49,832 nt of DNA, taken from Chrysochromulina tobinii (lineage: Eukaryota). The notes beneath the pieces were generated by a model. The model was given only the letters and a program-made list of their open reading frames with translations, was not told where the DNA came from and searched no databases. Below are positions 12,710-49,832 of the stretch, one piece after another (position 1 is the stretch's first letter; each line of letters opens with the position of its first letter). The stretch is from positions 1 to 49,832 of the forward strand of contig JWZX01002423.1 of assembly GCA_001275005.1 (NCBI GenBank), written 5' to 3'. The position numbers and the translations under genes were made by a program.

Positions 12710-15466
12710 ATGGCGGACCCTGGAGCGCAGCGCGTGCGCTTGAGGGCGCGCGAGGGCGAGGATGTCGAGTGGACGCACCGGGTAGCCCAGCGAGCAAGCA
12801 CGCTCAAAAACATGATGGACGACGCTCCAACAGAAGATGGCGTCTACCCGCTGCCGACGATTGCGGCGGCAGAGCTGGAAATGCTCATGGAGATGTGCGA
12901 GGCCGACTCCATGCCGGCGAGACTCGAGCTGTGCTCGATCCCGGAGCTCTTCAGGCTCGTCGAGGGCGCCAGCTTCCTTGATGCCCCCGGGGCGCTCAAT
13001 CACGCGCAGCGCACCCTCGCCTCGCGCCTCGAGGGCAAACGCGCCGATGAGCTGAGAGAGGTGCTCGGCGCAACGGATGACTTTGGCAGTGTGGAGGATC
13101 GTCTGGCGGCACTCGCCGAGCCGGCGTTCTCGCCGGAGGGGCAGCTGTCACTAGCCACGACGGGCTCTGCGGGGCCACCCGCGCTGGAGCCGCAGCCCTC
13201 GCTGTCGGGGGTAGAAGTAACGGACGATGCAAAGGAGGCGGCGTTGGGCATGGTCGACGTGGGCACGCTAGCCGAGCTCAAGGGTGTGAGCCGATCGTGG
13301 TTGGTGCTCGCGCGGCGCGTGCTCTGCTCCCGCCTCGGCCGCTGCGAGGGGCAGCCCGCGCCGACTGAGCTGGCTGAGATCACCGATCTCAACATCAAGA
13401 TCATCGTCGACGCGGGCCGGTCATGGGAGGCGGCGGCGGCGGGGAGGATGCTGCCCAGCCTGGCCCGACTGCGCTGGGAGGGCTTCGAGGTGAATGTGAC
13501 CGCGGTCCGCGGGGTGGATCTGGACGAGAGGGATGATGACGAGGACGATTACGAGGACGAGAGGCCGTTCCTTGGAGGCCCTGCCAAAACCGCTCTCCTC
13601 AGCTGCATCGAGGGAGAGGGCGAGCCGCCGCTCGAGCTACTGCTTGCAGCTGTCGCCTGTGCCGGCTCTGGCGAGATTCGCGGCATACCGGTGCAGATGA
13701 TGCGCGACGACTCCGCCTCTAAGCTCGACCTGCAAGAGAGAGATATCCTCGAAGAAGGCGGCATGCTTCTTGCGTACCTCGTGCCTGTCATGGGCGCGCT
13801 GACGGCCCTGAATTTGTCCTCTAACTGCCTCAATGATGAGGGCGTAAGCGCAGTCTGCGAGGCTATCCAGAGCAACAAGGAGACCAAGCTCGCGTCCCTC
13901 AACTTCGGGGACAACAATATCAGTCCAGTTGGAGCAAACTCTGTGGCGGCTATGGTAGCTGTCACAGGCGGGCTGATGGCCCTTAATTTATCCCATAACT
14001 ACCTCAAGGATGAGGGCGTAAGCGCAATCTGCAAGGCCATCCAGAGTAACAAGGAGACCAAGCTCGCGTCGCTCAACTTCAAGAACAATGGCATCAGTCC
14101 AGTTGGAGCAAACGCTGTGGCTGCTATGGTAGCCGTCACAGGCGGGCTGACGAGCATCAACCTGTCCGGAAACTATCTGTGCGGCATCCGGACTGACAGC
14201 TATGGCGACCAACATGGCACCTACACCGCAGAGGGCATCACTGCAATCGCCGACGCCCTGCGCGTCAATGGCGCACTGACGAGCATCTCCCTCGCAAACA
14301 ACATGATCTCTGGCATTGGAGGGCAGTTCTCAGATGGAAGTGGAGACCTAAGAGGTGCCTTCAGCATCGAAGGCATTGCGGCCCTCGCAGATGCTCTCTC
14401 AAAGAGCATGACGCTTCGGTCAGTGGACTTATCCAACAATTCTCTAGCTGGAGTAAACCGTTCTGGTCATGGAACCTTTCGTCCCGAAGGCATCAATTTG
14501 ATCGCTGATGCCATCCGCGTTAATGGCGCGCTGACGAAGTTGTCGCTCGCCCAAAACAAGTTGGAGGTGGAGGGCACCAAAGCCATCTGCGAGGCACTGG
14601 AACAGAACAAGACGCTCAAGGAGCTTGACATCAGCGGCGATAAGCGGAACAGCAACATTGGTGGGTCAGCAGGAGTCAAGCACGTGGCCAAGATGCTTGG
14701 CGTCAGCGGCGGGCTGACGAGCATCAACATGTCCGGAAATAATCTCACCGACTCCGGCAGGGACATGACGGGCATCAAGGAGCTCGCTGCAGCTCTTGGC
14801 GTTAACGGCGGGCTGACGAGCCTGGACCTCTCCAAAAACGCACTCTGCGGATTGGTCCAATCCTTCGGCGGCGGCGTCAGCGGCACCTACACTGCAGAGG
14901 GCATCACTGCAATCGCCAACGCCCTGCGCGTTAATGGCGCGCTGACGAAGCTGTCGCTCGCCCAAAACAAGCTGAAGGAGGCGGGCACCAAAGCCATCTG
15001 CGAGGCACTAGAACAGAACACGACGCTCAAGGAGCTCGATATCAGCGGAGATTGGCAAGGCAGCAACACTGGTGGTTCAGCAGGAGCCAAGCACGTGGCC
15101 AAGATGGTACGCGTCAATGGCGCGCTGACGAGCCTGGACCTCTCCAACAATGCACTCTGCGGGTTGGTCCAGGGCAGGGTCAGCGTTACCTATTCTGCAG
15201 AGGGCATCACAGCGATTGCGGAGGCTCTGCGCGTTAATGGCGCGCTGACAGAGTTGTCTATTTATGGCAACCACGTTGGTGATGAGGGAGTTGTTGCGAT
15301 CTGCGAGGCCATCCAGAGCAACAAGGAGACCAAGCTCGCGTCGCTCAACTTTGGGAACAACGGTATCAGTCCAGTTGGAGCAAACGCTGTGGCGGCTATG
15401 GTAGCCCTGAAATGCATGTACGCACCGTGCGGGTTTACGCACCACAGGATGGAGGATGCAACGTGA
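12710..15466 (+). CDS. Skp1/BTB-like domain + F-box-like segment + RI-type (NLRC3-like) leucine-rich repeats
   Basis: ATG at 12710 after aaaa context. Skp1-like motifs (RLRAREGE, ASTLKNMMDD, YPLPTI, LFRLVEGASFLD, LEGKRADELREVLG..DDF), F-box-like LAELKGVSRSWLVLAR, and many LTxLxLSxNxL repeats. Confidence 0.8.
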   Translation: MADPGAQRVRLRAREGEDVEWTHRVAQRASTLKNMMDDAPTEDGVYPLPTIAAAELEMLMEMCEADSMPARLELCSIPELFRLVEGASFLDAPGALNHAQRTLASRLEGKRADELREVLGATDDFGSVEDRLAALAEPAFSPEGQLSLATTGSAGPPALEPQPSLSGVEVTDDAKEAALGMVDVGTLAELKGVSRSWLVLARRVLCSRLGRCEGQPAPTELAEITDLNIKIIVDAGRSWEAAAAGRMLPSLARLRWEGFEVNVTAVRGVDLDERDDDEDDYEDERPFLGGPAKTALLSCIEGEGEPPLELLLAAVACAGSGEIRGIPVQMMRDDSASKLDLQERDILEEGGMLLAYLVPVMGALTALNLSSNCLNDEGVSAVCEAIQSNKETKLASLNFGDNNISPVGANSVAAMVAVTGGLMALNLSHNYLKDEGVSAICKAIQSNKETKLASLNFKNNGISPVGANAVAAMVAVTGGLTSINLSGNYLCGIRTDSYGDQHGTYTAEGITAIADALRVNGALTSISLANNMISGIGGQFSDGSGDLRGAFSIEGIAALADALSKSMTLRSVDLSNNSLAGVNRSGHGTFRPEGINLIADAIRVNGALTKLSLAQNKLEVEGTKAICEALEQNKTLKELDISGDKRNSNIGGSAGVKHVAKMLGVSGGLTSINMSGNNLTDSGRDMTGIKELAAALGVNGGLTSLDLSKNALCGLVQSFGGGVSGTYTAEGITAIANALRVNGALTKLSLAQNKLKEAGTKAICEALEQNTTLKELDISGDWQGSNTGGSAGAKHVAKMVRVNGALTSLDLSNNALCGLVQGRVSVTYSAEGITAIAEALRVNGALTELSIYGNHVGDEGVVAICEAIQSNKETKLASLNFGNNGISPVGANAVAAMVALKCMYAPCGFTHHRMEDAT

Positions 15467-15845
15467 CGACGTGTGATGACCCGAAGTGCGAAGACGAATT
15501 CTACTTAGCGCCACAGCCACCACCGGACCCACCGAGACGGGGTGTGGCGGACTGCCTGACTGACCCACCGTACTAGCGTTCCCACCGTAGTTCCCACTGT
15601 ACGGTGCTGCTGACGCAGCGAATTTAGTTCCCCCACCGTGCATGGGAATGCGGCGCTCTATGGAATTTGCGAAAAGGACATTTGAATCGACACACGCGAA
15701 CGCGCAACATTCGGAATTCGTCAATTCCTGTTAATTCACACCCGGAACGCGTCGTGGTCGCAATGCCGCGCGGCGCACTGCCTGCGCACGGCAGAACCGT
15801 TGACGTGAAGCGCCAAAAATCTCAGTAGCGCCAATCCTGCCATCG

Positions 15846-18800
15846 ATGCAGAGCAAGAAGTCGTCAAATCCTCCGTGGTGCGATGAGCTCGTCCAGGGGC
15901 AGAACCGCCAGCCCATGCATGCGCCGCTGCACGCGTACGAGAGCATCGCGAACGCGCTCACAGATGGCTGCACTGCTGAGCCGCCATCCTCGCGCTGGGT
16001 GCTCCGGCTCACGCCCGCGCAGTGGCTCTTCCACCTAGCCCCATCACCATCCATAGCGCCTGCGCCATACAAGGGAAGAGGCTTCCGCACCACGGGCTGG
16101 GGGTTGATTGCGGTCCCGTGCTCATGGCAAGTCGCCAACTACCAGCAGGGTGCCGCAGCTGGAGGCACCCCTTATACCGATCTCCCAATCTACGCAAATT
16201 ATCGGTACCCCTTCGCCGGGGACGCGGCGAGCCTGGCGAGCTTCCCAGTGCCGCGCGAAAATAATCCGGTCGGCTCGTACCAGGTCGAGTTCACCATCCC
16301 GGAGGCGTGGGACGGACGGCGCATCTTCCTGGTGCTAGAGGGTGCTGAATCGAACGCAACGGTGTGGATCGACGGCCGGAAGGTGGGCTACTCGCAGGAC
16401 TCGCGGCTTCCCGCGGAATTCGACGTGACCGCCGCCTGCGCTGGTCCGGCCCGCGGCGCTCCACTGGCAGCGGTTGGAGATGCGGCATCTCAGCCAAAGG
16501 TGGCAGGCCCACACGTGCTTTCGGTGCAGTGCATGCGGTACTGTGACGGCTCGTACCTCGAGGACCAGGACCACTGGTGGCTCTCCGGGCTGCATCGGCA
16601 CGTGTGGCTGTACGCCAAACCGCATCGTCTCTCGCTGGTCGACTACCATGTCGTCACCACAGCCGTCCAGCCCGAGGCATCGAGCCCGCCGGCCGGCCCG
16701 TCGGCCGAGATGACGATCTCCGTGCGCTGCCAGAGTGACAGACGCCTGGCGCCGTCAGAGCTCGAGAGTTATCGTCTGGTCACTTCGCTGCACGGGCCCT
16801 GCTTGCTCACACCCGGCGAGCCGGCGCCACCGCGCGCCGAGCTGTGGAGCGACGTCGAGCGTCTAGAGCCAGCCGACGCAGCCGAGCGGAATGACGTCGC
16901 TCTCACCCGCGCGCGTGCGGCGTGCGCGGCCAGCTGCGAGGAGCTCATGGAGGCAGGTGGACTGCTTGTGGGCGATGCGTGTGCGAGCTTCAAGCTGCGG
17001 CTGGACAATGCCTTCCTTTGGTCCGCGGAAGCCCCGTGGCTGTACACGGTCGTCGTTGAGCTGCGCGATGCGAGCGGCCAGACGATCGATTGCGAAGCGT
17101 GCCATGTGGGCGTTCGAACTGTGAGGTTGCAGAATGGCTGCCTGCTCCTCAACGGTCGCGAGCTGACCATCCGTGGGGTGAACCGACACGATCACTGCCC
17201 GCTGCGGGGCAAAGCAGTGGACTGGGCCACCATGCTGACCGACGTGAAGCTGATCAAGGCGCACTCGCTCAATGCTGTACGCACCTCGCACTATCCGAAC
17301 GCCTCAGAGTGGTATAAGCTCTGCGACGCGCTAGGCTTGTATGTGGTCGACGAGGCGAACTGCGAGACGCACGGCTGCCTCTTCATCGGCGACGAAGGCG
17401 CGCTCGCCAAGAAGCGCTCGTGGCGCGCCGCGTTTGTGCAGCGCTTCACACGCATGGTCCAACGGGACAAAAATCACGCATGCATCGTCGGTTGGTCGCT
17501 CGGCAACGAGGCCGGCTACGGCGGACACCACGATGCCATGGGCGTGTGGTGCCGAGCGCACGAGCCTTCCCGGCCTGTGCAGTACGAGTCCTGCGGCGGC
17601 GCCGCGTGCACCGACATCCTGTGCCCAATGTATCCGTCGGATGCGCTCGTGAAGCGGTTGAACACGCTCGCAGGCCAGCTGGCCTCTTCTCGGAAGAACA
17701 AGCCGGAGGACCTCACCCGACGATACCCTGCCTCGCAGCACTCGGGTGGCATGCGGCCGGTCATCCCGTGCGAGTATGCCCACGCGATGGGCAACTCGAC
17801 AGGCAACCTGAGCGAGTGGTGGACTCTCTTCGAGAGCCTGCCCTTCTGCCAGGGCGGGTTCATCTGGGACTTTGTAGATCAGGGGCTTGCGCAGTCGATC
17901 CCAACCGTCGCCGCCGCTGCCGTCTCGGCCAGCGGGGCAGCGCCGCCGGCGATCACCCTCGCTGACGGCACCGTACTCGCTGGCAAGCGATGGGCCTACG
18001 GCGGCGACTTTGGCGAGCGCGTGCACGACGCGCGCTTTTGCATCAATGGGCTCGTGGGCCCTGGGCGGCGGCCGCACCCCGGCCTTTTCGAGGTGAAGAG
18101 CGTCCTGCAGCCCGTACGTATAGCGCTCGGCAAGAGTCCGTGGGTGTACGTGGCGCCAGAGGATGGCGTGGGTGTTCGAGGCGCAGCGCGCGCAACGGGC
18201 ACGCTACGGCTCCGAAACCTATATGGCTTCCGATCCCTCGCGGGGCTTCGAGTGAGCGTGTCGCTGCAGGTCGACGGCGTCGTGGTCGGTCGATCTGTCG
18301 TAGAGTGCCTTGATGACGTGGCAGCCGGTGCCTCGCTCGAGTTGCGCATTATCGTGCCGCTCGGCGACGGTGAGGCAACGAGGACGGTGCTGCCCGAGCC
18401 GGTCGTGCGTAACCCGATGCTGGCGCGCGAGGCCTTCCTCGATGTCGAGGTGACCGACCCAGACGTCCCAACTTGGGCCCACTCGGCAGCACGCATCGTG
18501 GCGACTGCGCAGTTCACCGTGACGCCGCCATCGATCCCGCCGCCGTTGGCCTTCGCTGGGCATCTGATTTCCTCGGCTGATCTCGCCGACGTTACGTCTT
18601 CTCACAGCAGCGACGGCACGGACGGCACGGACGGCACGGACGGCGCGGACGGCCTGAGCTTTGCAGAGGACGTCGAGCGCGTTCTCATCCGCGGCGGCTG
18701 CACCGGCGGTGGCACCTTCAGCCTGGTGATCAACCGAGCTGATGGTACGGTGGGGCCGCTGAGTGTGGATGGGCACGTGGTCTTGAGTCGTGGCGGTGCG

Positions 18801-42528: not shown

Positions 42529-43459
42529 GGCCTTACTGGACTCTCGTTGCCGATACGCTCGATGCCGCGGGCGCCGTCCATGCTGCTGGTGAAGCATATG
42601 GATCGTGGCGGCCGCGGCGGTCGTCTTGGCCTCGTCTTGATGTCTAGAGCTCTAGACCCTGCAGATGGGTGCAGAATAGCAATATAGCGAGCAGCCGCAG
42701 TCATTAATTGTTCATGTTTATGTAAACTGTTTTTCGTGGGCGACACAGGACCAAGAAAGGGAAGGAGTCTCATTTTCTTGGGCGTTTTTGTGGTTTCGAA
42801 CAGCTATCTCCGTTGGAGAGATCCGAATCGAGATTCCCGAAAAACCCGAAGGATTCTAAGTGTCGTGTTAATCATCCTGGAAAAAATACTGAAAAAATTC
42901 ACAATTTTCCGACGCTCGAAGATGTTCAGTCATCTCGTATCGGCATGTGCCTTCGATTTGATGGTATCGATCCCGCGTGATGGTACCTGGTATCGACCAC
43001 CTTTAGGTGAGCATCTTCTCGCTCGGGTTTAGCTCGGGTCCTTGGCTCGGGTCTGTCACAGTTTCCGGTTTGTTTGTGATGTGGATCTAGTGTGGACCAT
43101 GGTGTGGAACTAAAAAGAGAGTTGCTCCCTGGTACCGGTCCCGTGTGTGTCCCGGCTCCCCCCGGTGTTTTTGAACTCAAGCTCACCGCAGGTGTGGTTG
43201 TGTTCAGTGTGCAGGGTACAACTGTATGAATGAGGGCTCCCCGCAGGCGAGCCGGCCACGCGGCCGGCCCGGCCAAACATGCATGCATGGTTGATGCATT
43301 GTGTTCCATATCCATACGCGGAAAGGGCGAGCTCCGGTACGTCGCTTGTACGTCCACGCCCCTTGTCCCCCTTCCTGGGGTTATATATGGCTGGGGGTTA
43401 TTCTGAGGCATTAGGGGGGGGTCCGGGGGGGTTTGTTATCGAGTTTGGGGGGGTTTGTT

Positions 43460-43860
43460 ATCAGGATACGTATCCTGATGTATTATGATGTATCCTGCAT
43501 GTATCCTGCAGGATACATGTATCTCTTATGTATCCTGATGTATCTCAAATGTAACTTAAATGCCCTGTTACATTCCAAGAGAATACATGTATCTTGATAT
43601 TTTGCATGTATTTTACACGTATCCCAAACGAGTCCAAGATACATTTTGGGAAACATATCAGATACATCAGGATATATGTATCTTGCACGTGGGATACATG
43701 CGGGATACATGCGAGATACATATGAGATACATGTCATTGAGGATACATGCGGGATACATGAGAGATACCTACATTGAGATACATGTATCTCAATTGTATC
43801 CAGAGAGGTACGTATCTGCAAATGTATCTTGTTGTATCCTGATGTATCTTGATGTATATG
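43460..43860. repeat. Array of GATACA/TGTATC palindromic repeats
   Basis: Many GATACA and TGTATC hexamers; perfect palindromes at 43460-43479 (20 bp), 43498-43519 (22 bp) and 43773-43794 (22 bp). Confidence 0.9.
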
Positions 43861-44273
43861 GTTCAGATTTAATCTCCGAGATTTTAATTAGTTGATGACA
43901 CTGACGAACCCTTGACGTAACCCGTCGCGCACTATGACCCTGAATCTTGAGTCTGACACTGGCAGACACACGTGATACTCCAGAGTGCGGGAAACATACT
44001 GGTCCATATGCAAGCACGCGGTTTCGTCCGAGGTGCGGCCGAGGTCGGTCGGGTTTGGGGGTCGTTTCGTCGGTCGAGGTTTCGTCGCGAAGGGGTGACG
44101 TTTTTGGATTTCACACTGAAACGTCCACTGGTCGTCCATATCGACGAACCTCGACCTCGACTCATGAGCTCGACCTCGCCGTTTCGGACCGACGCGCCGC
44201 GGTCGGGCATCGGACGTGAATTTTGTGGACGTTTCACACTACAGTATGACATCTTGCAGCATATGGCGGTTAC

Positions 44274-44290
44274 CGCGTCGTGTTGGGCGT
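44274..44290. repeat. Cassette-boundary motif copy 1 (CGCGTCGTGTTGGGCGT)
   Basis: Part of a 28-bp exact match with copy 2 (44263-44290 = 44557-44584); 1 nt from the stop codon of ORF 44292..44531. Confidence 0.9.
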
Positions 44291-44291
44291 G

Positions 44292-44531
44292 TTAGAACCC
44301 AGGTCCGTAACGGCGATCGTCATACCCCATTAAGTCCAACTCGTCTTCCACGATGTTATTCATAATGTAACGACGTCTGTTAGTCCGGTCGATCAGCGTA
44401 AAGGTTAGCAATTCCAAATAAGTGTCCCAAAGCAGCCTTATGAGATCTTGTGGAATTTGACGAATCTTGTTGGTCATGAGTACGACGAATTCCTGTGCAT
44501 CTAGTGGGTATACTCGCTGACGTGGCGGCAT
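44292..44531 (-). CDS. Array ORF A, 79 aa orphan with F-box-like segment
   Basis: ATG-to-TAA ORF filling the space between motif copies 2 and 1; IRQIPQDLIRLLWDTYL. Confidence 0.7.
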   Translation of the reverse strand: MPPRQRVYPLDAQEFVVLMTNKIRQIPQDLIRLLWDTYLELLTFTLIDRTNRRRYIMNNIVEDELDLMGYDDRRYGPGF

Positions 44532-44567
44532 CGATGTAACACATGTATGTCGGAAAATGGCGGTTAC

Positions 44568-44584
44568 CGCGTCGTGTTGGGCGT
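44568..44584. repeat. Cassette-boundary motif copy 2
   Basis: CGCGTCGTGTTGGGCGT; 36 nt before the ATG at 44531 and 7 nt after the stop at 44592. Confidence 0.9.
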
Positions 44585-44591
44585 TCTAATT

Positions 44592-45005
44592 TCATCTGGA
44601 ATGAAACGTAATCTTTCCAAAGTCACTGATGGGCATTCTTGTTGTTATGGTTGTCCCGGCGATCGTGTATTGTAATAAAAACCTCAAAGTACCACCGAGT
44701 TGGCCTATTAACCCTACTATCCTAAAGGGATAAGACCAAAACGCAACCTGGGCCCTCTCCAGTAGAGGAACGAACATGTAATTCACGTTCCGGTATAAAC
44801 GTACGCTCAAGTCAACGTCAGTTGTGTTCGCGGTAATGTCTTCCAATGAAAACCATCGTGAACGAGGAACACCTCGTGTGTAATCGGGTTGGCTCATACG
44901 TTGAGGTGCAACGTAAGGAGGTGCCTGTCGACGGTAAGCGACGTCCATCGCCATTTCTAGGCGCCTGGTAGGGTTGAGTGCTAATACACTCGCTCCAGTT
45001 CCCAT
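44592..45005 (-). CDS. Array ORF B, 137 aa orphan
   Basis: ORF filling the space between motif copies 3 and 2. Confidence 0.7.
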   Translation of the reverse strand: MGTGASVLALNPTRRLEMAMDVAYRRQAPPYVAPQRMSQPDYTRGVPRSRWFSLEDITANTTDVDLSVRLYRNVNYMFVPLLERAQVAFWSYPFRIVGLIGQLGGTLRFLLQYTIAGTTITTRMPISDFGKITFHSR

Positions 45006-45042
45006 GAAGTTTCACAGTTACTTTTAGAAATTACCGGTGTGA

Positions 45043-45059
45043 CGCGCCGTGTTGGGCGT
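45043..45059. repeat. Cassette-boundary motif copy 3
   Basis: CGCGCCGTGTTGGGCGT; 37 nt before the ATG at 45005; shares the 21-bp block AGAAATTACCGGTGTGACGCG with copy 4. Confidence 0.9.
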
Positions 45060-45073
45060 GTGAACTACTTAAC

Positions 45074-45352
45074 TCACCAGGCGGCTAAGCGCCTGGGCAT
45101 GGCCTGAGTAAAGGAATGCCATGCATTTAGAGGCCATGCAGTCCCAAAATCTGTATACGAGTTCATGTACTGTAAGATTGCCCTTGCTGCTCTTCTCCCA
45201 ATGACAACCCGTTTAATTATCGCAGCGAAGAATTGTCGCACTCTAACCCTCCTTTTTCGTCTTACTTCACACCAATCAAAAGTTACTCGCAAACCATCAT
45301 ACATTGTTCGTTGCCTTTGAGCCTCGCGCTGTTGTCGTGTTATTGGCGGCAT
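45074..45352 (-). CDS. Array ORF C, 92 aa basic orphan
   Basis: ORF between motif copies 4 and 3; begins MPP; Arg-rich amphipathic helix. Confidence 0.7.
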   Translation of the reverse strand: MPPITRQQREAQRQRTMYDGLRVTFDWCEVRRKRRVRVRQFFAAIIKRVVIGRRAARAILQYMNSYTDFGTAWPLNAWHSFTQAMPRRLAAW

Positions 45353-45388
45353 GAGTTTTCACAGTAAGCTCAGAAATTACCGGTGTGA

Positions 45389-45405
45389 CGCGTCGTGTTG
45401 AGCGC
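45389..45405. repeat. Cassette-boundary motif copy 4
   Basis: CGCGTCGTGTTGAGCGC; 36 nt before the ATG at 45352. Confidence 0.88.
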
Positions 45406-45417
45406 GTAACGGATCAT

Positions 45418-45681
45418 TTACCTGTACACACGGCGTATGCGTCTCCTCATCATGCGCTTGTATGATGGTCGCATCTCTGTCCAGTACCACCAATCACCAC
45501 TTAGTGGTGACTTTCGTCGCTTGAGGATCCACTTCGCGCGATTCCTCAACCACTTCATAATAGCCGCAACTGACTGTCTGAACCGCACCCAGGTTGCTGG
45601 ACTATTCCGGACGGGTGAACGTCGATTCTCCACCCAATGAACCGAGCCTGGTGAATCGTAACCGTCTGGGGGTGCGTTCAT
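45418..45681 (-). CDS. Array ORF D, 87 aa very basic, Trp-rich orphan
   Basis: ORF between motif copies 5 and 4; VRFRQSVAAIMKWLR resembles VRVRQFFAAIIKRV in ORF C. Confidence 0.7.
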   Translation of the reverse strand: MNAPPDGYDSPGSVHWVENRRSPVRNSPATWVRFRQSVAAIMKWLRNRAKWILKRRKSPLSGDWWYWTEMRPSYKRMMRRRIRRVYR

Positions 45682-45719
45682 ATTCAGATCAAACGTTTGG
45701 AAATTTCGTTTTAGGTCAT

Positions 45720-45736
45720 CGCGCCGTGTTGGGCGC
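45720..45736. repeat. Cassette-boundary motif copy 5
   Basis: CGCGCCGTGTTGGGCGC; 38 nt before the ATG at 45681 and 1 nt from the stop at 45738. Confidence 0.9.
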
Positions 45737-45737
45737 G

Positions 45738-46505
45738 TTACCGAATTCTTGGATTCACCTTGTTTCCTAAGTACCCACCAAGTGGGTTGCGTAACTCGAA
45801 ATCTTCTTCATGTATGCGCCTTTTATTGATTGGCTTATCGCCAAACGTGTAGGACCACCAGTTGGTTTTGGTTTGGAAATCTTCGCCAAGAGGTATGTTG
45901 TTGCTTTCCCATCTTTGTCTCGCTCGTGTTCGGTCATTCCACTGCACATTATCTTTAAGTTCTTGAGGAGTGAGAGATAATGTGAAAGTTCTCTCCATAG
46001 CCGTGGCCATTGTGTTCCAATTCCAGTATTGGGGAGGGCTCATTCGATCGTTCCATTGATCTTTCGTGGAAATTACTCCCTGGCCGTAAAAATGAGACAT
46101 AATGCGCGGTGGGCGTGGTATGTCGAGCTTCCAAGAAAGTGAATTAGGCGACCTCCGCCACCATTCCAAATTCGGTGTGAGTAAGGTGAGGACATCGTTC
46201 CCAAAATGGGTGGTTCTTGCGACCGCTTGCCAGATCGCTTCCCAGAGCCTCCTGACGAGAACCGGGACTACGTCGCCCGTATGGACGTACTGTCGCCGTG
46301 CTAATGTATGTGCAGGCAAAGGTGGGCGGTTCGCCGCCACAGCAGCACGCGCGAGTTGTTTCAACGAGGGAACTTTGGACGGTATCGCCAAGAAGGCGAG
46401 GTCTTTCAATGATGGGACTAATGCAGGGGCTCTTCCAAACAACCCACGCTTATTGTCATAGCGTTTGGCAGGCGGCATGAGCTGTCTTAAGCTGTCGTCA
46501 TCCAT
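45738..46505 (-). CDS. Array ORF E, 255 aa orphan with two tandem BC-box-like motifs
   Basis: VPSLKDLAFLAI and VPSLKQLARAAV; alternative start MPPAKR at 46478. Confidence 0.72.
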   Translation of the reverse strand: MDDDSLRQLMPPAKRYDNKRGLFGRAPALVPSLKDLAFLAIPSKVPSLKQLARAAVAANRPPLPAHTLARRQYVHTGDVVPVLVRRLWEAIWQAVARTTHFGNDVLTLLTPNLEWWRRSPNSLSWKLDIPRPPRIMSHFYGQGVISTKDQWNDRMSPPQYWNWNTMATAMERTFTLSLTPQELKDNVQWNDRTRARQRWESNNIPLGEDFQTKTNWWSYTFGDKPINKRRIHEEDFELRNPLGGYLGNKVNPRIR

Positions 46506-46549
46506 TGGAAATTTCCAAGTATTCTGGAAATAGCGAGCACTTCATCGAG

Positions 46550-46819
46550 ATGACCATTTTTGTCAAACCGCGGCCCTACCGACGCCTGACGCGCTCGTGG
46601 TGCCGCTGGTGCTGCAAGCGCGCGGCGATGCAGGACCTCTTCAAGCTGCGCGACGGGCCGCTCGACTGGTACTTCTGCGACTCCGAGCACGCGCTCGACT
46701 GGCTCGAGCACCGGCACAGCTCGGTCGAAGCGAACCGACTCCTGCGCATGCTCCCGGACGAGCGCGCGAGGGCGCTGAATGGACGGACGATCGAGGAGGT
46801 TACCGCCAGATGCGAGTAA
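46550..46819 (+). CDS. Small GC-rich protein with a TRASH/FCS-like Zn-binding pattern
   Basis: ATG at 46550; CRWC...YFCDSEH; strong GC3 codon bias unlike its neighbours; 3' end overlaps the convergent ORF by 20 nt. Confidence 0.6.
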   Translation: MTIFVKPRPYRRLTRSWCRWCCKRAAMQDLFKLRDGPLDWYFCDSEHALDWLEHRHSSVEANRLLRMLPDERARALNGRTIEEVTARCE

Positions 46820-47162
46820 TTGGGGTATCCTCTAAGCGGTCAAGCCACCGTTCATAAGCGTGGCGTCTCTGCCATGTAGATCCTTCAGAGGGGGGGTTTC
46901 GAAGGCCCCACCTTAGTGCATCCCTCTTGCCATAGGCGTCGTCGGAGCTTTTAGAGTGTTGTGGTGTTGGTGCACGCATGCTGACTCGATTCACCGCACG
47001 ACGAATCCATAGGCGTATCCTCATCGCCCATTTTATTGAGTTGTGATGTATTAAATTGAACCAGAGTGCAGGATTCCGCACACCTATTTCGCGCTTATCT
47101 AGAATGTCATTCAAGTACATCCAAGTTGGGGGGTCGTTGTCTCTGGGTATCGGACCGGGCAT
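46800..47162 (-). CDS. Array-type ORF F, ~120 aa orphan
   Basis: ATG at 47162 (MPGPIP); lower GC; basic helix WAMRIRLWIRRAVNR. Confidence 0.65.
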   Translation of the reverse strand: MPGPIPRDNDPPTWMYLNDILDKREIGVRNPALWFNLIHHNSIKWAMRIRLWIRRAVNRVSMRAPTPQHSKSSDDAYGKRDALRWGLRNPPSEGSTWQRRHAYERWLDRLEDTPITRIWR

Positions 47163-47187
47163 CAACTCTCATACCAAAATTAGAAGT

Positions 47188-47577
47188 TTACACACTCTGT
47201 GTGATCGCAAGCGTATGCACACGAGCCTGCGACGTCTTTAAGGCTAACCCTAACCGCCGATTCCGTCTCACGTGCTCGACATCAGCGGGAGTAAGAATTG
47301 GCCGGTAACCTTGAATGTGACCTTGCACGAAATCGGTTATTGTCTGCGCAGCTTGCATCCATGCTTCGTATCGTAGTGCTAACCATTTCCTTTGAATGTC
47401 AATCAAAGCCTTAAGCGGACCCCATAACGATCGCGTTCCGTAGCCCTTGAAGATTGCTTGGAGTGATAGATTGGCCAACGAAGGCACTTCGTCGGGGAAC
47501 TTCCGGATAATCATCCCTCTCTCAAATCCGTTGAATAAGTAACCTGTCTTTTTGTACCCGACCCAGTGTTGTGACAT
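47188..47577 (-). CDS. Array-type ORF G, 129 aa orphan with BC-box-like and IQ-like motifs
   Basis: VPSLANLSLQAI; AAQTITDFVQGH. Confidence 0.65.
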   Translation of the reverse strand: MSQHWVGYKKTGYLFNGFERGMIIRKFPDEVPSLANLSLQAIFKGYGTRSLWGPLKALIDIQRKWLALRYEAWMQAAQTITDFVQGHIQGYRPILTPADVEHVRRNRRLGLALKTSQARVHTLAITQSV

Positions 47578-47592
47578 GCGAAGGTCTATCTG

Positions 47593-48291
47593 TCATTCCA
47601 AATCCGGAAAATCGTCCGGAGTCGGTGGCAGTGCGCGCGTTTCGACGCGGTCCCAGAAGCCAGTGTCCATGTGCGCGTTCCGCGACTCCTCGACCATCTC
47701 GCGGATCATCTCCTTCTCGCCCTTTGCGAACTTTGGCGGTCCATCGCCATCGCACATCGCTCGGTAGAACTGAGCGTAGTGCGTGCTCTTGAGCACGTCG
47801 TGCAGATCGCAGTCGCGCGTCACGCGGATGACCTTGTACGCTCCGGGCTTCCACGAGATGAAGTCGCACCACTCGCGGTCCGCGCACTCGAGGCACAGGT
47901 TGATCTGCAGGTAGTAGTACAGCGGGATCGTCTGGTGCGGCGTCTTGCTCCAGTAGGGGCACTTAGCCTCAACCATGCCCTCGGTGCCGATCAGCCCGTC
48001 TGGCGAGCCCGCGAGCCAGGGCGTGCTCTCGTGCACGTGCAGGCCGGTCGGCTCGACGAGGTTGCCCGTGTGCGCGCTGTAGGCGACGAGCGCGTTCGGC
48101 TCGTTCGCCGTGCCCCAGCGCGTCGCGTCGTTACCCTCAAACGTGTCCGTGCCGATCGCGCGCTCGTACGCGACCTTGCGGCTCGTCCACGAGCAGAGCC
48201 CGAGCGCAGCGCCGACATTCGAGGCCGTGAGCTTCCCCTTGCGCGCCGCGTGCCACTCTGGCGAGCCCTGCTGCAGTGTGGCCGTCGTCAT
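47593..48291 (-). CDS. YqaJ-like viral recombinase / lambda-exonuclease family nuclease
   Basis: QGSPEWHAARKGKLTAS, WGTANEPNA, LAGSPDGLI, VEAKCPY (PD-(D/E)xK), YYLQINLCLEC, CDFISW. Confidence 0.92.
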   Translation of the reverse strand: MTTATLQQGSPEWHAARKGKLTASNVGAALGLCSWTSRKVAYERAIGTDTFEGNDATRWGTANEPNALVAYSAHTGNLVEPTGLHVHESTPWLAGSPDGLIGTEGMVEAKCPYWSKTPHQTIPLYYYLQINLCLECADREWCDFISWKPGAYKVIRVTRDCDLHDVLKSTHYAQFYRAMCDGDGPPKFAKGEKEMIREMVEESRNAHMDTGFWDRVETRALPPTPDDFPDLE

Positions 48292-49015: not shown

Positions 49016-49769
49016 ATGCTGTCGCTCCTGACGCCGCGCCAGAGTGACCAGGTCGGTGGGCCGATCGGGTCGCTGCGCGAGGCGAAGAAGGTCGAGTCGT
49101 ACCCGAACTATGACGCCGCGTACCTCGCAAAGCGACTAGGCGCACGAAATCCAACAGTGCTCGAACGCAATCGGTACAACGCGCCGGCGGCTGGCTTCGT
49201 CAATGTAACCGACGAGATGGTCTACTTACAGAACGCTACGAAGGGGTACGAAGCCGAAGCAGAAGAGTGTCTGAAAAAGGAGTTCAAGGATTGGTTGGCG
49301 GGTGTGCATGATGACAACGTGAATCCACAAGTCTACGACAACAATCGAGGAGGCGCGGTTCGTCGGGACATGACAGGGAATCGCGTGAACAACTGGAAAC
49401 CAACGTGGTGGGGCCCGCATCAGCTGACGTACTTGCCTGGCGTGCGCGAATACTTGCGCGAGCAGGCCGAGCGCGTTGACAAGAACTCGCTCGACCTCAA
49501 CGTCCTGGCGCATCTCGGTCCGCAGAATCTCGAGGAGGCTTGGGCGTACTTCAAGCACTGGGTGAAGGCTCGGCCCATCGGGCCTGAGGAGTGCTTAAAC
49601 CCCTCACCAGTATTGCCAGCTAACACTGACATACCTTTCCGTGCCGGGCCAATCCACATGCAACACGACACCCAGTATCACCCAGACCGACCATACCTTG
49701 CAGGTGGCTATGGATATGGAGTTGGTGGCGGTGGTGGCGGTGGTGGTGGTGGTGGTGGTTGGTTTGGTG

Positions 49770-49800
<31 letters not shown>

Positions 49801-49832
49801 CGGTGGCGGTGGTGGTGGCGGTGGCGGTGGCG
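49016..49832 (+). CDS. Partial ORF (>270 aa, no stop in window), globular domain followed by poly-Gly
   Basis: My translation from the ATG at 49016: MLSLLTPRQ...EFKDWLAG...PTWWGPHQLTYLPGVREYL...GPQNLEEAWAYFKHWVK...GGGG. It is missing from the ORF track, presumably because it has no stop in the window. Confidence 0.75.

Follow-up and report, generated by a model that had tools for sequence, protein, structure and literature searches.

The 49,832-nt contig JWZX01002423.1 of Chrysochromulina tobinii (assembly GCA_001275005.1), hereafter the window, holds in its last part 6.7 kb of an element which, judging from the relatives of its genes, is likely an integrated mriyavirus (gamadvirus/NDDV)-like virus in a haptophyte alga; the window stops short of the capsid and replication genes. 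Close to the left end of this element, five short genes alternate with five copies of a palindromic motif, a layout that a first-pass annotation had described as an integron-like cassette array of orphan genes. The array is a real feature and, by analogy with known systems, likely a case of repeat-bounded gene shuffling of the kind described for the PeSL (promoter early stem-loop) cassettes of T4-type phages, new for a eukaryotic virus. Gene content varies at the motif, and four of the five genes (c1-c4) are cassette-like units with the fifth (c5) as an anchor. The palindrome comes in addition to the likely start signal of the genes and also closes the last gene of the array.

Layout of the array

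The motif is present in five exact copies in the window, at 44274..44290, 44568..44584, 45043..45059, 45389..45405 and 45720..45736 on the minus strand, where a first-order Markov model predicts 5.5e-4 exact matches for the window and 5e-6 for the array region, the pattern itself having been taken from the five copies to which this expectation applies. The corresponding open reading frames (ORFs), all on the minus strand as well, are found at 44292-44531 (c1, 79 aa), 44592-45005 (c2, 137 aa), 45074-45352 (c3, 92 aa), 45418-45681 (c4, 87 aa) and 45738-46505 (c5, 255 aa). Behind the stop codon of each of these five ORFs, the motif follows after 1, 7, 14, 12 and 1 nt, respectively, and 36, 37, 36 and 38 nt separate it from the ATG in the four internal spacers, with whole intergenic stretches of 56-68 nt. 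The count and positions of the motif, the ORF sizes, their common orientation, the alternation and both sets of spacings reported in the first-pass annotation could all be reproduced. After shuffling, the ORF bodies of c1 to c5 remained open in 1.45%, 0.05%, 0.4%, 1.95% and 0 of 2000 trials, respectively.

On the gene strand, the motif reads RCGCY-CAACAC-GRCGCG, an imperfect palindrome with a perfect 6-bp stem in copy 5. The length of 17 bp initially ascribed to it holds for the core and falls short of the whole repeat, which continues past it towards the leader but not towards the gene: copies 1 and 2 are identical over 28 nt, and copies 3 and 4 are 92% alike over 36 nt. Gene-side identity ends 0-4 nt past the motif in all 10 pairs of window copies; leader-side identity runs for 11-17 nt in the closest pairs. 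Each spacer is thereby composed, in order, of a stop codon, the palindrome, a leader of 35-38 nt holding the hexamer TTCYRR, and an ATG. This succession of stop, palindrome, start element and ATG is found in 4/4 internal window spacers and in L174a from a metagenome locus presented below, and the same type of leader stands upstream of a decayed frame in L152a. In the leaders of c1 (44532..44567), c2 (45006..45042), c3 (45353..45388) and c4 (45682..45719), all on the minus strand, TTCYRR is positioned at +13, +14, +14 and +18, respectively; 18 of the first 20 nt of the c3 leader are common to the leaders of c2 and L174, and the c4 leader is the most diverged.

The hexamer is not specific to the array. 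In 11 related loci (L077-L083, L086, L088, L262 and L266), the sequences preceding 187 ORFs are enriched in TTTCT, TTCTGA and TTCTAA, and TTCYRR, a pattern derived from this very set of ORFs, is found at most 50 nt upstream in 116 of the 187, mostly 18-27 nt before the ATG, vs 7.3% of random windows. It is likely a promoter or start element in use throughout the gamadviruses, the promoter role being suggested by this distribution, and no mention of it appears in the passages of the gamadvirus literature examined. Since TTCYRR stands behind 6/6 internal palindromes (at +13 to +18), each unit carries the likely start signal of the family; and since the palindrome also closes the last gene without such an element, TTCYRR standing behind 0/3 terminal palindromes (copy 1 in the window), the palindrome is not just a promoter. 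The two alternatives originally offered, that is a gene-capture array or a set of genes behind a reiterated promoter, are therefore not exclusive: a start element is indeed part of the spacer, and the promoter-only version does not hold.

Variation of gene content at the motif

A scan for the motif covered 3 of the 64 parts of a metagenome collection and yielded 120 loci, three of which hold the array spacer, namely L174, L152 and L244, the latter two being one locus in two assemblies. At L174, two copies with the same type of leader surround an unrelated 168-aa ORF; a 67-aa ORF precedes them, with a motif remnant (11/12) 39 nt before its ATG and directly behind a host SH3 gene. L152/L244 is a short remnant element, in which two copies flank a decayed ORF with its stop 3 nt before the motif, and which ends in the same terminal core as the window element. 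L203 bears the terminus of the element, its match to the motif being due to chance, and the other loci (including L146, L178, L191, L227, L259 and L261) were rejected as chance matches in coding DNA.

In the sequencing runs, bridging contigs follow the window as far as the edge of copy 3 (45058), depart from it there and join the leader at copy 4 either at 45356 (run X1, depth 38; run X15, depth 12.8) or at 45369 (X1, depth 40.7), c3 being skipped in both cases. These contigs are compatible with replaced cassettes and are not proof of them. Neither the depth differences nor the zero depth over c3 (45084-45340) are taken as copy numbers, and the RNA run X16 (share 0.08) has no bearing on expression. 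Given the cargo of L174 and L152/L244 together with the joints in two run sets, the proposal of variable cargo between motifs is borne out, and the case in which every copy of the element would have identical content fails. Regarding the companion proposal that breakpoints coincide with the motif, the joints do leave at the edge of copy 3, and gene turnover occurs at motif-free slots too.

Besides, the scan of viral contigs for the motif gave 76 loci, all single matches and none related to the element; searches with the motif-plus-leader, GATAC-block and terminal-unit patterns returned 0 matches each, and genome contigs gave 0 pattern matches, as well as two short weak matches to the 89-aa gene of the element that were not used. 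A 14-mer recurring behind more than two genes is found in 0/21 related loci, which are partial records including two pairs from the same contig, vs 5/12 ORFs in the window. From the absence of such a repeat in these loci and from the motif-free turnover, the array appears lineage-specific, on top of a general swapping of accessory genes.

Cargo genes and anchor gene

As first remarked, the array ORFs are of lower GC (0.46-0.53), with a GC content at third codon positions (GC3) of 0.41-0.57 vs 0.88 for yqaJ and the 89-aa gene, the conserved viral genes closest to the array, and 0.72-0.86 in six host ORFs. None of the cargo proteins belongs to a Pfam or PHROG family, and Rfam gave no match. The ORFs had been considered largely unrelated to one another and this stands: among 10 cargo bodies, none of the 45 pairs rises above its shuffles, and the bodies are unrelated at both DNA and protein level. 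In the databases, the exact c1 protein occurs on 12 contigs (cluster of 1) and c2 on 3 contigs (cluster of 2); the sole match to c3 is a 55-aa piece of c3 itself, found on 7 contigs (cluster of 2), and c5 is found on 11 other contigs. Elsewhere in the element, the 89-aa gene has a cluster of 112 and yqaJ of only 7, so these counts are compatible with a patchy cargo, though the yqaJ cluster is small too. The orphan status of c1, c2 and c4 is defined by family scans and 90% clusters. The cargo would consist of accessory host-interaction genes.

The description of five orphan cassette genes is appropriate for c1-c4 and has to be amended for c5, which lacks an upstream motif and shares 50-91% identity with 17 unnamed homologues; for these reasons it is the anchor of the array and not an orphan cassette in the strict sense. 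It adjoins the 89-aa gene in other copies of the element, as seen from three database proteins with falsely extended N-termini. Its AlphaFold model has a mean predicted local distance difference test (pLDDT) score of 42.5, a PDB sequence search and the Atlas gave nothing usable, and an alignment scan of viral contigs with c5 gave 0 matches. Stretches of the VPSLxxL type, twice in c5 (46300-46430; VPSLxxLA) and once in the 129-aa gene (47400-47505), resemble the Elongin BC-box, a reading for which neither Pfam nor the comparison of c5 with the 129-aa protein provides support; if true, it would make both proteins ubiquitin-ligase adaptors. Of note, a c5 variant (P0039, P0060, P0067 and P0068) ends in FAPCWDQ, where APCW is what the opposite strand of the motif encodes; known from the protein alone, this ending hints at an inverted copy of the motif.

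Comparison with known systems

By analogy, the PeSL cassette is the closest known design. In the T4-type phages RB49 and phi1, these cassettes combine a sigma70 promoter, a Shine-Dalgarno sequence and a strong G/C stem-loop with demonstrated terminator activity, number about 50 per genome and have been shown to form mini-circles, and no dedicated recombinase was identified for them (PMC2839356). Both systems place a stop, an inverted repeat, a promoter and a start codon in the intergenic space before ORFans of a hypervariable region, and in both neighbouring genes differ between close relatives with no dedicated recombinase identified. The present array differs in belonging to a eukaryotic virus, in having TTCYRR in place of sigma70, a weak stem and five copies, and in being known from sequence alone; the likeness is one of design and no sequence homology is claimed.

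The integron, to which the array was initially compared, is a looser analogue. Its attC sites are 55-141 nt long with R'' (RYYYAAC), R' (GTTRRRY) and L boxes (PMC7370490), and its cassettes are mostly without their own promoter, being driven from Pc beside attI. The array resembles it by its co-oriented single-gene units without spare DNA, by a palindromic site holding RYYYAAC behind each stop, and by a cargo of unknown function that varies between copies. In contrast to integrons, there is no R' box, the site is below 30 nt, the sites are near-identical instead of diverse, no integrase was found, and every internal unit (6/6) has its own start element, whose promoter function is presumed. Thus, the term integron-like is justified as an analogy and for the variable content, and fails on the attC test; with no R' partner, too short a site and no integrase found in the part of the element inside the window or in two related records, the array is not an integron.

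Closer in kinship are the Mriyaviricetes/Gamadviridae or NCLDV-like dwarf viruses, including the Pleurochrysis endemic viruses and Phaglo-G. They have a haptophyte host in common with the window element, whose PDDEXK/YqaJ nuclease and two neighbour genes are shared with contigs encoding an NCLDV-type capsid, an A32 ATPase, VLTF3 and RuvC; like the window element, Phaglo-G is noted to occur as an integrated copy that ends in short repeats (10.1101/2024.02.29.582850; 10.1101/2022.07.28.501842). They differ from it in that no motif-bounded array was seen in the 21 related partial loci or in those passages. The coccolithovirus EhV, also a haptophyte virus, has a variable region with reiterated early promoter elements; this region spans about 80 kb of a giant-virus genome, and a layout of one gene per palindrome is not described in the excerpted text (PMC5371807).

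Literature searches, mainly of open text and with the supplementary genome maps of mriyaviruses outside their scope, found no such array in eukaryotic viruses, and none is described in the accessible parts of PMC12220804 and PMC12480563. In 2010, the PeSL report saw no evidence at that time of such plasticity in other viruses or cells (PMC2839356). Genomes of eukaryotic DNA viruses are dominated by orphan genes; with a fixed boundary and a variable single-gene cargo, the gain and exchange of such genes could be tested by PCR and long-read sequencing in an alga that can be grown in culture.

Proposed mechanism and rival explanations

The reading we favour, with about an even chance of being right, is that the spacers are regulatory modules doubling as homology patches for gene swapping. 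It is drawn from the layout, from the confinement of the start element to internal spacers and from the differing cargo between the same spacers elsewhere. Recombination between neighbouring repeats would remove or circularise one gene, and between resident or co-infecting virus copies it would swap or add one; each incoming gene would bring its own start signal and hence be self-expressing. The palindrome would be bound by a protein, and would close the gene before it and either insulate or activate the one after it. Crossover would use 17-36 nt of homology and the general machinery instead of a dedicated integrase, for which the YqaJ-type nuclease encoded 1.1 kb from the array, a RuvC-like resolvase such as the relatives have, and host repair are candidates for that machinery. 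Several observations weigh against this reading. Copy 5 has only the 17-mer in common with the other copies, which is short for homologous exchange, and across nine sites none of the 6 pairs of the stem has compensatory base changes. The bridging joints are known from ends alone, with short sides of 25 and 31 letters at 85% likeness; no single-cassette circle junction of the kind anticipated was found among the 15 joints, of 20, that were looked at, in contigs only, and no cargo gene was seen at two different array positions. Moreover, in the marine relatives L084-L092 single low-GC genes are gained or lost at slots without the motif, with short AT-rich borders, and the 120- and 129-aa genes of the element also vary without it.

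Instead of homology patches, the palindromes could be site-specific recombination sites, where an enzyme would excise single-gene circles and insert them at the terminal copy; we regard this as a rather unlikely possibility. Candidate enzymes are the HUH nuclease of the virus and a tyrosine recombinase coming from the element or from co-resident Polinton-like viruses. Sites of the dif/lox type consist of inverted arms of 11-13 bp around a conserved asymmetric centre of 6-8 bp, and are served by a cognate recombinase. In the array and metagenome sites, the 6-nt centre CAACAC is invariant (9/9) with arms of about 11 nt that vary and are only partly symmetric. The n+1 layout with a promoter-less terminal copy speaks for such sites, as does the polarity of the identity, the two terminal copies being the same over 28 nt and the innermost the most diverged. 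RYYYAAC stands just behind the stop in 9/9 sites vs 0.7% of shuffles, a likeness spotted after the fact in sites that are not independent, and the non-coding strand folds at least as well in 9/9 sites, with only four kinds of substitution behind this result. In one case, at L174, virus-like DNA starts at the 11/12 remnant (centre and right arm) behind the SH3 gene, and gamadviruses are reported to carry two HUH domains (10.1101/2024.02.29.582850). However, the GTTRRRY partner is found within 150 nt downstream of 0/9 sites, which are far below the length of attC (PMC7370490). The predicted tyrosine recombinase (or intI) was found neither in the 12 element ORFs nor in two related records, there is no covariation, only copy 5 folds better as DNA than its shuffles, and none of the 21 related loci has a comparable repeat though HUH genes should be common to them. 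A viral equivalent of the integron, in which a HUH nuclease or a borrowed recombinase would cut the palindromes and add circles at the genome end, is rather unlikely; if true, the hundreds of integrated copies in the alga would amount to a common library of effector genes open to exchange, and the involvement of an enzyme would bear on how mriyaviruses, reported without integrases, recombine and integrate.

The palindrome could also be a transcription signal only, either a terminator or an activator of an early class, the genes being moved by illegitimate recombination with the signal co-copied or selected. Its place 1-14 nt after 5/5 stop codons, with the start element following 13-18 nt further on, would suit such a role, the motif-free slots demonstrate single-gene turnover without it, and the coccolithoviruses have a hypervariable, promoter-rich region (PMC5371807). 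Yet the RNA fold predicted for the coding strand ranges from -2.0 to -13.3 kcal/mol and is weak in copies 1 and 2 (-2.6 and -2.0 kcal/mol), just 5/12 element ORFs have the palindrome, and repeats of 28-36 nt around unrelated cargo with breakpoints at the motif edge are hard to explain without recombination at the repeat; this explanation is judged unlikely. Far less credit is due to the tandem duplication of one unit followed by divergence, or to an assembly chimera joined at the repeat, both of which are very improbable. The many copies of the element, the lack of any listed contig covering the whole stretch and the absence of coverage of c3 in the runs would fit a chimera, but one contig crosses copy 5 from c4 into c5 (45578-46612), another crosses copy 4 into c4, c1, c5 and the c3 piece recur on other contigs as given above, and a chimera would itself require the same spacer around different genes elsewhere. 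The duplication of one gene is rejected, since neither DNA nor protein comparison relates the cargo bodies to one another.

The element carrying the array and its surroundings

The likely gamadvirus-like identity of the element is deduced from the viral-contig relatives of its yqaJ, 89-aa and 49016 genes together with the gene set of the related contig L080, which upholds the earlier view of an endogenous eukaryotic DNA virus. The YqaJ/PDDEXK-type nuclease (232 aa, 47593..48291, minus strand; PF09588, E 4.7e-20) matches 16 viral contigs at 52-69% identity; all but one of these (15) also have a match to the gene at 49016..49832 (plus strand), a conserved viral gene that stands beside yqaJ in relatives and is cut here by the window end. 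L080 encodes an NCLDV-type (nucleocytoplasmic large DNA virus) capsid, an A32 ATPase, VLTF3 and RuvC, the set that defines mriyaviruses in the source passages, where gamadviruses are assigned to haptophyte hosts (10.1101/2024.02.29.582850). Mriyaviricetes/Gamadviridae are further characterised by HUH endonuclease(s), the lack of a DNA polymerase and a genome of 35-45 kb, and mriyaviruses are reported without integration genes (10.64898/2026.06.19.733378). Two genes of the element have homologues named as Chrysochromulina parva proteins.

The left end of the element lies at the host junction (43131..43176): at about 43135, a single-copy contig stops (end at 43162) and a highly repeated terminal block starts, with many different flanks (at 43138 and 43176) in the runs, three of the four having been read; the core of this end also occurs in L203 and L152. 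It is followed by a GATAC-rich repeated terminal block (43450..43860), 86% identical in L203, where the same block is inserted elsewhere, and by a subterminal region of CGACC-type repeats (43900..44273) with a weak likeness to L152 (score 33, shuffle maximum 31). A unit of about 45 bp bounded by ACCGGT (43131-43176; L203 945-1010) is by far the deepest stretch in the runs, with varied flanks on both sides, and could represent either a tandem repeat of the terminus or solitary scars marking hundreds of insertions. ACCGGTA, the core at the element end (43131-43140), is also present in the leaders of c2 and c3 (45026-45042 and 45372-45388) and L152a and absent from the other leaders, possibly by chance.

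On the other side of the array, the short spacer between the divergent c5 and 89-aa genes (46506-46549) contains a 10-bp palindrome without mismatch, together with start elements in either direction, and is likely, from this arrangement, a two-way promoter. The conserved Cys-rich 89-aa viral gene (46550..46819, plus strand) is found in 12/34 related loci; among 15 members of its cluster (P0096-P0110), at least 8 different C-termini follow right after TIEE(V), which makes a second sharp variable boundary, without a palindrome. Two optional ORFs of low GC3, of 120 and 129 aa and also without palindrome, come next (46800..47577, minus strand). In the marine relatives (L084-L092; L086 at 13000-17300), clusters of Arg-rich low-GC orphans are oriented towards a central region where TTAGGG and CGACC repeats occur. 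Finally, the first 43 kb of the window consist of GC-rich eukaryotic genes (1-43000), including, as named by eye, choline dehydrogenase-like, ferroportin/cystinosin-like, Skp1-LRR, beta-galactosidase-like and Tfb4-like genes and, with search support, ankyrin proteins and a cytochrome c heme lyase.

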